Source: an uncultured Poribacteria bacterium
GTDB lineage: Bacteria > Poribacteria > WGA-4E > WGA-3G
Reading direction: 5' to 3'
NCBI GenBank assembly: GCA_958296135.2
Contig: CATQHZ020000001.1
Location: 3,680,001-3,744,000, forward strand
Length of the DNA: 64,000 bases
In this document: piece by piece, positions 18,500-24,360 of the stretch
How the letters are laid out: each line of letters opens with the position of its first letter
Numbering within the stretch: position 1 is the first letter of the stretch
Position numbers and translations under genes: made by a program
Notes under the pieces: generated by a model
What the model saw: the letters and a program-made list of their open reading frames with translations, nothing else
Database searches by the model: none
Told to the model about the DNA's origin: nothing

Positions 18500-19513
18500 A
18501 TGACAAAACTGCTAGAAGTGCGAGACCTCCGAAAATATTTCCCAATACAGAAAGGACTCCTGCAACGCACCGTCGGCTATGTCAAGGCGGTAGACGGCAT
18601 TAATTTTGACGTGCATCGCGGCGAAACCCTCGGGCTTGTGGGCGAAAGTGGATGCGGCAAGACGACAGCAGGACGGTGCCTCCTCCGCTTAATTCCGACG
18701 ACAAGCGGCAGCTTCACCTTCGGGGAAGAGCAGGTAGATCTGGCGACGTTAACGCATCGGGAAATGCAACCCTACCGCCGACGCATCCAGATGATTTTTC
18801 AGGACCCGCACGCTTCCCTCAACCCACGGATGACGGTGGCAGACATTGTCGGGGAACCGCTGCGTGTCAATCGTGGGGCGGTAGCAGCAAACTCGCGAGC
18901 GCAAATCCAAGAACGCATCGCCGAATTGCTAGAATCTGTCGGCTTGAAATCGCAAGATATGCGCCGATACCCGCACGCCTTCAGCGGGGGGCAGCGGCAG
19001 CGCATCGGCATTGCGCGCGCGTTGGCACTGAACCCCGAACTGATTGTCGCCGATGAGCCGGTCTCCGCACTCGATGTCTCCGTGCAGGCGCAGATTCTGA
19101 ACTTATTGGCGGAACTGCGTGAGAAGTTCCAGCTCTCCTATATTTTCATCGCGCACGACTTGAGCGTTGTTGAACACATTAGCGATAGAGTCGCCGTGAT
19201 GTATCTCGGCAAGATTGTGGAGATAAGCGACGCGGAGACGCTGTATAGTGCGCCACAGCATCCTTACACGGAGGCGTTAATCGCCGCCGTGCCGCTCCCC
19301 GACCCGAGCGCGCAACGCAAACGCGAACAAATCCGATTGGAGGGTGACGTGCCAGACCCTTCGCAACCGCCGACCGGGTGTCATTTTCACCCACGGTGCC
19401 GTTACGCAACCGAGCAGTGCAAGCAAGAAACGCCGCAACTCCGAGAAGTCGCACCCGGCGTGCAGGTAGCATGCCATCACAGCGAGACGTTGGAGTTACG
19501 AGGAGTCTCATGA
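18500..19513 (+). CDS. Peptide/nickel ABC transporter ATPase (OppF/DppF-like)
   Basis: Motifs [20 protein letters not shown] and [10 protein letters not shown]. Confidence 0.93.
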
Positions 19514-21111
19514 AAAATCTTGAAAATGTCCTCTTTTATGGCGATTGTCTGGACAACCTCCGAAAATATATTGCAGACGAGACGGTAGACGGCTGCTACC
19601 TCGATCCGCCGTTCAACTCCGATGCAAACTATAACCGGCCTTTTCAGCGCAAGGAGCAGGGGAAACAGCAGAAACCGCCGGCGATGGCGTTCCACGATAT
19701 GTGGCATTGGGACGAAGCAGCGCAGCGCGCTTACGAACGCCTGCTCGCCGCGCCGCGTGCCGAGATTGCAAACATGGCGCGCGGCTTGTATCTCATCCTC
19801 GGTGAGAAACCGATGACAGCCTACTGCTTCTACATGGCAGAACGGCTCATCGAAATCTATCGCGTGCTGAAACCTACAGGGAGCCTCTATCTCCACTGCG
19901 ATGCGACAGCGAGCCACTATCTGAAAGTCATCCTGGACGCAATTTTCGGGGAAGGAAATTTCCGAAACGAGATTATTTGGCACTACTACAATAAATTTGG
20001 TGCCGGTAAAAACGTCTTCGGCCGCAACTATGACCAGGTTTTGTTTTACTCAAAGACGGATAAATACCAATTCAACCCGCTTCGAGTCAAGCGTGAGAAG
20101 CCGGTGCGGCAATTGGTGCGTGAAAACGTCAACGGTGTCTTGAAAAACAAGCGTGACGCGGAAGGAAATCTGATGTATCGCGTTGTTAATGACAAAAAAT
20201 TGGATGCCGTTTGGACGATTCCGTGCCTGCAACCCGCTTCACGCGAGCGGCTCGGCTACCCGACACAAAAGCCGTTAGCACTGTTGGAAAACATCGTCAA
20301 AGCGTGTTCCAATGAAGGGGATTTAATTCTGGATCCGTTTTGTGGGTGCGGCACGACGCTCCACGCCGCACACAAACTCAACCGTCACTGGCTCGGCATG
20401 GACATCAGTTATGGCGCGATTAACGTCGTCAAAGAACGGCTACAAGACGCTTTCTCGGACAATGCCCTCCGCTTTGCCATTTACAACGCGCCTGATTCTT
20501 ATGAGCAGGCAGTCGCCTTAGCACAACAGGAGGCAGCCGAGGTCCAACTGGTTCAGGCAAAGAACCGGCAAGGCCGCAGCAAGCATCAGGCGCGGTATGA
20601 TTTCCAGAACTTCATCCTCGGTCAGATTCGGGATGCACAGGGCCGCCTGCTGTTGCAACCCAGTCAGAGTCTCAGTCGCGATGGCGGCATCGATGGCTGG
20701 GGCACGCTTTATCTCGGCGTTGACGAAAAGGGGCAGGACAAAGAGGGGCTCATCCTTGTCCAAGTGAAAACCAGCAAACGCATTGGGCGGCGCGAGATAG
20801 ACGAATTCTATGGCGTGCTGAAGGCAGAGGCGGCTTCGATGGGCATCTTCATCAGCCTCTATGGACACCGCCTGAACGGTTATGAAGAAGTGCTGAGTCC
20901 GGAGGCGAAGGCGCGCGTGGCTCTGCTTCAGGAACGCACGTTTGTGCATCCGTTAGATGGCCGTGCCTGGCCCGAATTCCAATTCTGGAGTGTGAGCGAT
21001 TTGATGGAAAATCGGCAGCCGCAACTCCCGAGTTCTGCCAGAAGCGACGTGCCAAAAGCCGTGCGCGAAGTCGAAGAAACACAACTCAAATTGGAAGTTG
21101 CGGAGGTTTAA
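19510..21111 (+). CDS. beta-class N6/N4 DNA methyltransferase fused to an Mrr-like endonuclease, copy 1
   Basis: Motifs [14 protein letters not shown] and [10 protein letters not shown]-terminal DGGIDG...VQVK. The ATG overlaps the upstream TGA. Confidence 0.88.
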
Positions 21112-21114
21112 GTG

Positions 21115-22773: not shown

Positions 22774-22776
22774 GTG

Positions 22777-24360
22777 ATGACAAACGCCCTCTTTTACGGT
22801 GATTGTCTGGACAATCTCCGAAAATATATTGCAGACGAGACGGTGGATGGCTGCTACCTCGACCCGCCGTTTAATTCCAATGCAAATTATAACCGGCCTT
22901 TTCAGCGCAAGGAGCAGGGGAAACAGAAAAAACCGCCGGCGATGGCGTTCCACGATATGTGGCATTGGGACGAAGCAGCGCAGCACGCTTATGAACGCCT
23001 GCTCGCCGCGCCGCGTGCCGAGATTGCAAACATGGCGCGCGGCTTGTATCTCATACTCGGTGAGAAGCCAATGACAGCTTATTGCTTCTACATGGCAGAA
23101 CGGCTCATCGAAATCCATCGCGTGCTGAAACCTACAGGGAGCCTCTATCTCCACTGCGATCCAACAGCGAGCCACTATCTCAAGGTAATCCTAGACGCGA
23201 TTTTCGGTGAGCAGAACTTCCGGAATGAAGTTATCTGGCGCATCGGATGGGTGAGTGGGTTTAAGACGCAGAAGCGAGGTTGGATCCGCAATCACGATAC
23301 GTTGCTTTACTATACGAAAACGCCTGCAGCACAGCAAGTGTTCAACAAGGAGTATTTGCCGTATCCGCCGGGTTATGTCCGACGAGACGGGGCGAAACCG
23401 AAGGGCAAGGGTATCCCGATAGAAGACACCTGGAATTGCCATTCAGGGGATAGACTGGACTCAATTATGATCAAAAGTTTCTCCACTGAAAAATTGGGGT
23501 ATCCCACCCAAAAACCGCTGGCCCTCCTTGAACGCATTATCAAAGCGTGTTCCAATGAAGGGGATGTGATTCTGGATCCGTTTTGTGGGTGCGGCACGAC
23601 GCTCCACGCCGCACATAAACTCAATCGACGTTGGCTCGGCATGGACATCAGTTACGGGGCCATCAACGTCGTCAAAGAACGGCTACAAGACGCTTTTTCG
23701 GACGAAGCACTCCGCCTCGGCAACGGGTTCACGATTTACGATGCGCCCGATTCCTACGAACAGGTGGTAGCCTTGGCACAACGAGAAGCTGAGGAAGTTC
23801 GGCAGGTGCAGGCGAAGAACCGGCAAGGCCGCAGCAAGCATCAAGCACGGTATGACTTCCAGAATTTCATCCTCGGTCAGATTCGGGATGCACAGGGCCG
23901 CCTGCTGTTGCAACCAAGTCAGAGTCTCAGTCGCGATGGCGGCATCGACGGCTGGGGCACGCTTTATCTCGGCGTTGACGAAAAGGGGCAGGACAAAGAG
24001 GGGCTCATCCTTGTCCAAGTGAAAACCAGCAAGCGTATCGGCCGGCGCGAGATAGACGAATTTCTCGGGGTGATGTCAGCGGAAGAAGCCACGATGGGCA
24101 TCTTCATCAGCCTGCACGGCCATCAGCGCGCAGGCTACACCGATGTGCTAACCCCCGAAGCGAAAGCGCGGGTAGCACAAGTTGGGCAGCGCACGTTTGT
24201 GCATCCGTTAGATGGCCGTGCCTGGCCCGAATTCCAATTCTGGAGCGTGAGCGATTTGATGGAAAATCGGCAGCCGCAACTCCCGAGTTCCGCTAGAAGC
24301 GACGTGCCAAAAGCCGTGCGCGAAGCCGAAGAAACACAACTCAAACTTGAGGTTACGTAG
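22777..24360 (+). CDS. beta-class N6/N4 DNA methyltransferase-Mrr-like fusion, copy 3
   Basis: Same motifs with a third distinct central region. The stop codon falls in a GTAG at the start of a REP cluster. Confidence 0.88.
   Translation: MTNALFYGDCLDNLRKYIADETVDGCYLDPPFNSNANYNRPFQRKEQGKQKKPPAMAFHDMWHWDEAAQHAYERLLAAPRAEIANMARGLYLILGEKPMTAYCFYMAERLIEIHRVLKPTGSLYLHCDPTASHYLKVILDAIFGEQNFRNEVIWRIGWVSGFKTQKRGWIRNHDTLLYYTKTPAAQQVFNKEYLPYPPGYVRRDGAKPKGKGIPIEDTWNCHSGDRLDSIMIKSFSTEKLGYPTQKPLALLERIIKACSNEGDVILDPFCGCGTTLHAAHKLNRRWLGMDISYGAINVVKERLQDAFSDEALRLGNGFTIYDAPDSYEQVVALAQREAEEVRQVQAKNRQGRSKHQARYDFQNFILGQIRDAQGRLLLQPSQSLSRDGGIDGWGTLYLGVDEKGQDKEGLILVQVKTSKRIGRREIDEFLGVMSAEEATMGIFISLHGHQRAGYTDVLTPEAKARVAQVGQRTFVHPLDGRAWPEFQFWSVSDLMENRQPQLPSSARSDVPKAVREAEETQLKLEVT

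Follow-up and report, generated by a model that had tools for sequence, protein, structure and literature searches.

A 64,000-nucleotide stretch of the genome of an uncultured Poribacteria bacterium, a sponge symbiont (contig CATQHZ020000001.1, positions 3,680,001 to 3,744,000; hereafter the window, in which positions are counted unless a contig is named) carries three consecutive genes, g1, g2 and g3 in window order, that encode beta-class DNA methyltransferases (MTases) fused to an Mrr-type nuclease domain. The genes share a scaffold, and each has its own variable segment (TRD1, TRD2 and TRD3, respectively) at the position of the target-recognition domain (TRD). We put the probability at roughly 60% that they encode co-expressed one-protein restriction–modification (R-M) enzymes, each with the specificity of its own TRD, and that recombination changes both the TRDs and the copy number. 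We refer to the genome with the window array as G000, to two sister genomes as G001 and G002, to the array site as locus A and to a second locus as locus B.

Three fusion genes differ in one internal segment

All three open reading frames (ORFs) are intact and lie head-to-tail on the plus strand: g1 (19510–21111; 533 aa), g2 (21115–22773; 552 aa, with an alternative GTG start at 21112) and g3 (22777–24360; 527 aa). The MTase motifs DPPF and DPFCGCG of g1 are located at 19603 and 20332, and its nuclease motifs DGGID and VQVK at 20680 and 20758; g2 and g3 have the same architecture. Both gene junctions (21100–21123 and 22762–22785, plus strand) share the identical sequence ...GCGGAGGTTTAAGTGATGACAAAC, comprising a GGAGG ribosome site, a TAA stop and a GTG/ATG start, as the preliminary description of this DNA had reported. 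That description had also pointed to one divergent segment per gene at these positions, which we confirmed: in codon alignments, used for all comparisons among the three genes, TRD1 (19981–20250), TRD2 (21577–21897) and TRD3 (23239–23493), each counted after the W, are only 36–40% identical in DNA.

The near-identical scaffold that had been proposed holds for the 5′ block of about 460 nt (90.5–95.7%) and for the nuclease core (95–97%), but not for the middle of the genes, where motifs X–III are 77–86% and the linker 62–78% identical. The C terminus is 95–98% identical among the three. Near-identity throughout the 3′ end, also claimed, applies only to g2 and g3 (96–98%) and fails for g1, which carries a 129-nt mosaic patch at 20809–20937. 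Within this patch, g2 and g3 are 98% identical, whereas g1 is 63% identical to them and 81–85% identical to the locus-B genes of the sister genomes. Locus B is only a remnant in G000, and the retention of a patch of its type in g1 suggests that gene conversion between loci A and B preceded the loss of B in this genome. The nuclease core, at 22243–22470 in g2, contains exact shared runs of up to 119 nt and is a likely crossover block. Of the 20 differences between g2 and g3 in the 5′ block, 15 fall within 23161–23233, a cluster suggesting the left edge of an imported TRD3 tract.

Predicted recognition segments move between positions and loci

An array invariant across related genomes had been named as the case that would speak against a library of specificities. 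Locus A instead holds three genes in G000, two in G002 and none in 17 family-level relatives; the G001 copy stops at a contig break (L024). The first gene of G002 combines a g1-like start and short linker with TRD3, and the second carries a new segment, TRD5. Locus B holds TRD4 in G002, TRD3 in G001 and the short remnant in G000. TRD3 occupies the last position of locus A in G000 and the first in G002; in G001 it lies at locus B. It is 91–94% identical in three genes whose 5′ blocks are 80–86% identical. Between G000 and G001, its synonymous divergence is 8.5 of 55.8 sites (0.15), compared with 0.56–0.59 for the scaffolds and 0.35 for a flanking gene.

We extended the comparison to 124 distinct subfamily sequences, taken from 28 close relatives on the array scaffold (protein search) and the members of seven clusters, up to 15 each. 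These contain only five TRD types (17, 26, 21, 43 and 17 sequences). TRD1 (17 of 124) occurs at first, inner or last position, as judged by the termini, and TRD2 (26 of 124) on scaffolds of both loci. TRD2 is paired with three linker types, TRD3 and TRD4 with two and TRD1 and TRD5 with one, indicating that both whole-middle and TRD-only exchanges occur. In a scaffold tree built from 32 of 35 rows (without P0026, P0027 and P0028), TRD2 and TRD3 appear on either side of a 99/98 split. The occurrence of one TRD group at different loci and positions, incongruent with the scaffold although judged without a formal one-clade test, is the pattern expected of TRD movement (DoMo). Grouping proteins from equal-size contigs, with positions read from the termini, yielded 25 multi-copy groups as a proxy for arrays, three of which may pair loci A and B; 23 of the 25 hold different TRDs, in orders such as 2-3-1, 1..5, 1..2, 2..3 and 3..1. 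Motif-based extraction dropped 156 of 207 matches in one search and two 69-aa fragments from another set.

Of the expandable library originally envisaged, variable copy number and the movement of TRDs between positions and loci stand, but the library is small and closed, with five TRD types among 124 sequences and no more than three copies seen. Nor is exchange confined to the constant flanks, as had been assumed; it also covers the linker and the nuclease patch.

The array sits in an ABC-transporter operon

The genes of this plus-strand operon are ordered oppD, oppF, g1–g3, a nucleotidyltransferase–HEPN fusion gene and then genes for a binding protein and a pair of permeases; these final three assignments come from sequence and context. 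A sigma70-like promoter upstream of oppD (17375–17403; a consensus match only, at 11 of 12 positions) likely drives the operon, and no plus-strand terminator-like match was found between it and 26004. The starts of operon genes overlap or abut the preceding stops; the stop of oppF, an ABC ATPase gene that forms the conserved left flank (18500–19513), overlaps the start of g1 (ATGA). From this location and the coupled starts and stops, we infer that g1–g3 are co-expressed from the promoter of the host operon.

In the 17 family-level relatives (L004–L020), oppF leads directly to the HEPN or binding-protein gene without array genes, which identifies the array as a genus-level insertion within a hot spot. 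The toxin–antitoxin-like nucleotidyltransferase–HEPN gene (24447–25409) was inserted there separately and is present in 0–3 copies in relatives, and the ABC solute-binding protein gene (25406–27337) forms the conserved right flank. Such HEPN fusion genes trail both loci A and B inside housekeeping operons, in 0–3 tandem copies (L021, L022, L023 and L025).

Domain architecture and predicted fold

The Pfam families N6_N4_Mtase and Mrr_cat exceed their cut-offs in all three array proteins, and motif IV (DPPF) precedes motif I (FxGxG) with the variable region between them, which is the beta-class order. PADLOC and NCBIfam searches returned generic MTase matches only, none of them above the NCBIfam cut-off. 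In an AlphaFold model of g3 (104-row alignment; predicted confidence score, pLDDT, 83), residues 1–305 match beta-MTases (M.MboII, Z 23.6, root-mean-square deviation (rmsd) 2.3 over 220 aligned residues; EcoP15I Mod, Z 20.9). Residues 325–501 match restriction nucleases with middling scores (LlaBIII, Z 8.4, rmsd 3.5, 123 aligned; AspBHI, Z 8.0; MspJI, Z 7.8). Structure searches returned no solved structure covering both domains. Together, the Pfam and fold matches bear out the domain identities given in the preliminary description. The first ~25 residues of the 'cassette' include a core strand in the model (E173–180), so the TRD proper probably begins after the HD-x-L-L-x-Y strand.

The array proteins contain a PD-QxK catalytic domain of the Type IV Mrr/MspJI kind, with the site D-G-G-I-D...Q-x-K intact. 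Pfam searches gave no Mrr_N, winged-helix or SRA reader match at an E-value of 0.1, and the N-terminal part is the MTase. Among 220 family sequences, the first D is present in 215, the second D/E in 220 and the K in 214; the Q position holds Q in 142, S in 37 and E in 35. The pattern D.G.D...(Q/S)xK occurs in all 68 full-length viral members.

A widespread family is expanded in one genus

All 8,000 candidates scored in a protein search were homologues, and 359 viral stretches encode relatives. Two temperate actinophages, Dori and Hippo, encode full-length members close to integrases. Dori gp42, Hippo gp48 and plasmid entries named 'site-specific DNA-methyltransferase' have the N6_N4_Mtase plus Mrr_cat architecture and motifs of g1–g3 and are annotated merely as methyltransferases. 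Loci outside the genus array are mostly single-copy, with a second copy within the fetched flanks at 2 of 123 and a split gene at 1 of 123. No second MTase adjoined the family gene at 23 outside loci, and no Pfam nuclease or helicase partner was detected among 52 neighbours scanned from 21 outside loci. The array itself also has no adjacent Res helicase–nuclease gene of the Type III kind, its neighbours being oppF and the HEPN gene.

At an E-value of 1e-80 and with no more than 39 candidates scored in each genome, family matches number 29 in G000, 25 in G001, 37 in G002 and 18 in G004, compared with 0–8 in the other 21 family-level genomes and none in 13 of 16 order-level genomes. The 23 members with a nuclease motif that were extracted from G000 all carry different TRDs, and six TRD clusters occur on more than one scaffold group. 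Within this larger genus-level repertoire, the array is the visible part with the most active recombination.

In a second scaffold group in G000, motif IV is followed by a poly-G tract. The reading frame is lost in five copies, with runs of 8–9 G (contig C1, near 195.6k, 670.3k, 1453.4k, 2953.9k and 4145.7k (split)), and kept in one (600268–601731); ORFs beginning at the poly-G model position also occur in G001, G002 and G009. This group is a candidate phase-variable on/off set, with homopolymer assembly errors possible. Other tandem family pairs with shared C termini are present at C1:3840255–3843380 of G000, in the sister genomes and on one viral contig (L026, L027, L028; L199). A 154-aa family gene at C1:1251794–1252258 fuses the N-terminal start directly with the nuclease half, apparently through internal deletion of the TRD and motif I, and a further member (C2:89509–91077) lies on a 144-kb contig of 37% GC content that was binned with G000.

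The C-terminal tail resembles a clamp-binding motif

The motif QLKLEV is present in the tails of all three array proteins (21082–21099 in g1 and 24337–24354 in g3, plus strand), and in the g3 model this tail has a pLDDT under 50. Clients of the beta-clamp share the consensus Q-x-x-L-F or Q-L-x-L-x-hydrophobic; the phage members Dori and Hippo end in EQSTLF and EQTEKLF. Clamp-like tail motifs occur in 17 of 63 family representatives versus 81 of 2,873 genome ORFs (shuffles: mean 2.3, maximum 8) and, with patterns fixed beforehand, in 20 of 50 viral representatives versus 10 of 331 (shuffles: maximum 7), an enrichment of about ten-fold in both sets.

A predicted complex of the G000 DnaN with the g3 tail (residues 496–527) scored 0.58 versus 0.02 for the best control, with 71% contact agreement and a partner pLDDT of 46, and thus lends weak support. 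The mark applied was passed by 116 of the 157 solved pairs and by 2 of the 215 mismatched ones, with 18 solved pairs and both mismatches at 0.60 or under; passes of this kind are more often wrong than right unless the complex was likely beforehand. As clamp–peptide complexes are textbook material, this pass may reflect likeness to solved look-alikes. We give about even odds to docking of the tail on the replication clamp, by which new DNA would be marked before it is cut.

Proposed mechanism and alternative readings

If the three genes encode R-M enzymes, each protein would bind a predicted distinct DNA sequence through its own TRD, and its MTase domain would methylate an adenine within that site, as the DPPF motif by rule goes with an N6-methyladenine (m6A) product. 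The fused C-terminal Mrr-type domain would cut unmethylated sites in the manner of Type IIC/IIG enzymes. Because one TRD serves both activities, a TRD swap would alter both together. The near-identical blocks that flank the TRD and linker make unequal crossing-over and gene conversion possible: such events in the 5′ block and nuclease core would add, delete and homogenize copies, and shorter exchanges at the motif VII–VIII and motif X boundaries would shift the TRD alone. The promoter of the host operon would provide co-expression of the copies and, tentatively, clamp docking of the tail would ensure that new DNA is marked first.

Several observations weigh against this reading. Serine replaces the nuclease-site glutamine in 37 of the 220 family sequences and 29 of 68 viral members, aspartate replaces the lysine in 6 of 220, and three of four scanned relatives score above the threshold of Pfam NA-iREase1 as well, the name of which denotes an inactive nuclease. 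Mrr and MspJI cut modified rather than unmodified DNA (PMC12707154), as does AspBHI according to its PDB title. Around 25 active restriction specificities would place a heavy load on a cell. Most paralogues at other loci keep their own TRD across G000, G001 and G002, indicating that swapping is not frequent family-wide, and the synonymous divergence of TRD3 between G000 and G002 (0.29) is about the genome background (0.33–0.39); recent transfer is therefore not required to explain that move. For genomes other than G000 and G002, the array orders were read from protein termini and equal-size contigs, not from DNA. At an E-value of 1e-8, 20 of the 52 scanned neighbours had no Pfam match, and a divergent partner could thus be missed. 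Finally, most representatives (46 of 63 and 30 of 50) lack the clamp-like motif.

We regard as unlikely, on balance, a library for methylation only, in which the TRDs would diversify the methylome, for self-marking against the restriction enzymes of other symbionts or for gene regulation, and the Mrr-fold domain would bind DNA, dimerize or at most nick. The NA-iREase1 matches and S-x-K variants suit this idea, as do 29 family matches in a single genome and the frequency of orphan MTases (PMC4752239); carriage by phages would also be in keeping with anti-restriction. The nuclease core is, however, the most constrained block: the pooled ratio of non-synonymous to synonymous divergence (dN/dS) over 21 pairs of seven close genes, which are not independent and are affected by gene conversion, is 0.022 there and 0.076 and 0.042 in the MTase blocks. 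In addition, the acidic and lysine residues of the site are near-invariant.

That the nuclease acts on a different substrate appears distinctly less probable still. It would attack foreign modified DNA, as Mrr and MspJI do, or nick the new unmethylated strand behind the fork in the manner of MutH or Vsr, placed there by the clamp tail. Modification-dependent enzymes among the nearest nuclease folds and the clamp-like tails fit such a role. By contrast, no separate reader domain was found (Mrr_N, SRA at an E-value of 0.1), Type ISP enzymes and BtgZI also use an Mrr-type PD-QxK domain for restriction of unmethylated DNA (PMC3874165, PMC4081073), and a patchy, mobile distribution with TRD turnover suits defence rather than repair.

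A neutral origin of the array by tandem duplication at a hot spot in the operon, with divergent segments that leave specificity unchanged, would be in line with the accumulation of HEPN genes at the same site (0–3 copies) and with two equal-size-contig groups that hold two copies with the same TRD. We consider it very improbable, as 23 of the 25 multi-copy groups hold different TRDs, and each TRD is conserved despite a DNA likeness of 36–46% between them (TRD3: pN 0.027 versus pS 0.25). TRD3 is at least 60% identical in 91 of 92 distant homologues, selected with a query that contained it, with a median of 75% compared with 51% and 33% for the flanks. A weaker TRD3 relative lies inside a Type III Mod beside a helicase gene. 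Plasmid matches to TRD3 (31–43% identity) come without a recorded recognition motif.

Read depth supports three copies in one genome

The preliminary description had raised a single copy in a strain-mixed assembly as a possible objection. We examined read depth in four public runs (X1–X4) from one sample, probably the source of the genome; they test the assembly and are not independent support for it. In X4, depth was 111 and 108 in the flanks, 109, 109 and 113 in the TRD1, TRD2 and TRD3 unitigs and 215 in the shared junction unitig, and the same 1:1:1:2 pattern was seen in all four runs, the junction sequence (280 in X1) being at about twice flank depth. Each TRD at flank depth with the junction at double that depth places the three copies within one genome. 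Although the genome is metagenome-derived and none of the public contigs of that sample spans the whole array, alleles of different strains strung together are an exceedingly remote explanation given this pattern, the separate two-gene array in G002 and the two or three TRD types on other equal-size contigs.

A joint skipping 21518–21889 gave the initial impression of a fourth allele; its letter changes, however, are those of the paralogue at C1:3208.5k. TRD5 had no cover in X1 and X4, which is not proof of its absence.

Relation to known systems

With MTase and nuclease in one polypeptide and the catalytic residues intact, the array proteins resemble single-chain R-M enzymes; they would work like Type IIC/IIG enzymes, which cut unmodified DNA a set distance away from the recognition site, without being classed as members of that group. 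BtgZI (Type IIC) is the one MTase-first, PD-QxK-last fusion named in PMC4081073 and likewise combines an N-terminal amino-MTase with a C-terminal PD-QxK nuclease in a single polypeptide. Its MTase is alpha-class, whereas the array family has a beta-class MTase domain that contains the TRD, a comparison made by description rather than by sequence. The usual Type IIC/IIG order, to which BtgZI is a known exception, is an N-terminal nuclease, a gamma-class MTase and, at the C terminus, the TRD (PMC4081073), and in the consulted literature fused R-M enzymes are gamma-class with one alpha-class exception. As in Type IIG/IIL enzymes (MmeI, Eco57I, BpuSI), one specificity domain would serve methylation and cleavage, allowing one-step specificity change, and Type ISP enzymes (LlaGI, LlaBIII) share the Mrr-like PD-QxK nuclease (PMC3874165, PMC4752239); compared with Type IIG and ISP, the domain order of the array proteins is reversed and their length only ~530 aa.

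In Helicobacter pylori, the beta-class Type III mod genes are established cases of TRD movement: the TRD lies between motifs IV–VIII and X–III and moves between loci through recombination at the flanking motifs (PMC3467074). The array differs in its lack of a Res helicase, its fused nuclease and its tandem genes of variable copy number. The lpl cluster of Staphylococcus aureus likewise consists of tandem paralogues that recombination within conserved internal blocks has reshuffled; its products are lipoproteins and not DNA enzymes (PMC2568036).

The excerpts of PMC3874165, PMC4752239, PMC10609329, PMC12707154, PMC12114051 and PMC3424549 do not describe a beta-class fusion, and no paper on a beta-class MTase–nuclease fusion or array was found in the literature searched, which took in few subscription papers and neither REBASE nor supplements; family members with motifs may be on record in REBASE or in the supplementary tables of two papers (PMC4752239, PMC10609329). 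TRD shuffling is a known process, and the enzyme architecture, the tandem accordion, the scale of the expansion and the clamp-like tail appear undescribed. A broader proposal combines these elements: a widespread, undescribed class of compact beta-type one-protein R-M enzymes would travel with the replication clamp and in this way protect their own genome, and one Poribacteria genus would have expanded it to ~25 specificities per cell, tuned by TRD shuffling, accordion arrays and poly-G on/off switches. Taken as a whole, we find it doubtful.

A beta-class fusion with thousands of homologues, many of them on phages, has been annotated simply as 'methyltransferase', and the locus, by offering five natural TRDs on one scaffold, makes family function and beta-class specificity directly testable. 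Under the broader proposal, natural TRD–scaffold combinations would form a ready set for decoding beta-class sequence recognition. A clamp-docking tail would bear on how single-specificity enzymes spare newly replicated DNA, a problem discussed for MmeI, which must avoid cutting new DNA (PMC3874165). R-M genes are reported to be enriched in sponge symbionts (PMC5649159), and the array would provide a concrete mechanism behind this enrichment. Large repertoires are not unheard of: 25 R-M loci are reported for Cenarchaeum symbiosum A (PMC10609329).

Other features of the window

Two further loci in the window may relate to defence. A DUF499 AAA+ ATPase gene upstream of the array (11776–14943; best PADLOC match HmaC) marks a possible defence locus, and a 700-aa Type III Mod-like beta methyltransferase (32723–34825; PADLOC MTase_III) has no Res-sized ORF listed adjacent to it. 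Repeats include 21-nt (heptad) coding repeats that are coiled-coil-like (2496–3250) and at least four tandem repeats of ~645 nt (50414–53147), probably from a repeat-domain surface protein on the minus strand. A family of 30–60-nt palindromic repeats is dense at 53911–55300, with scattered copies at 8026, 11095, 14975, 32645 and 62914, and a second palindromic family has a copy at 24387–24428, just past g3.

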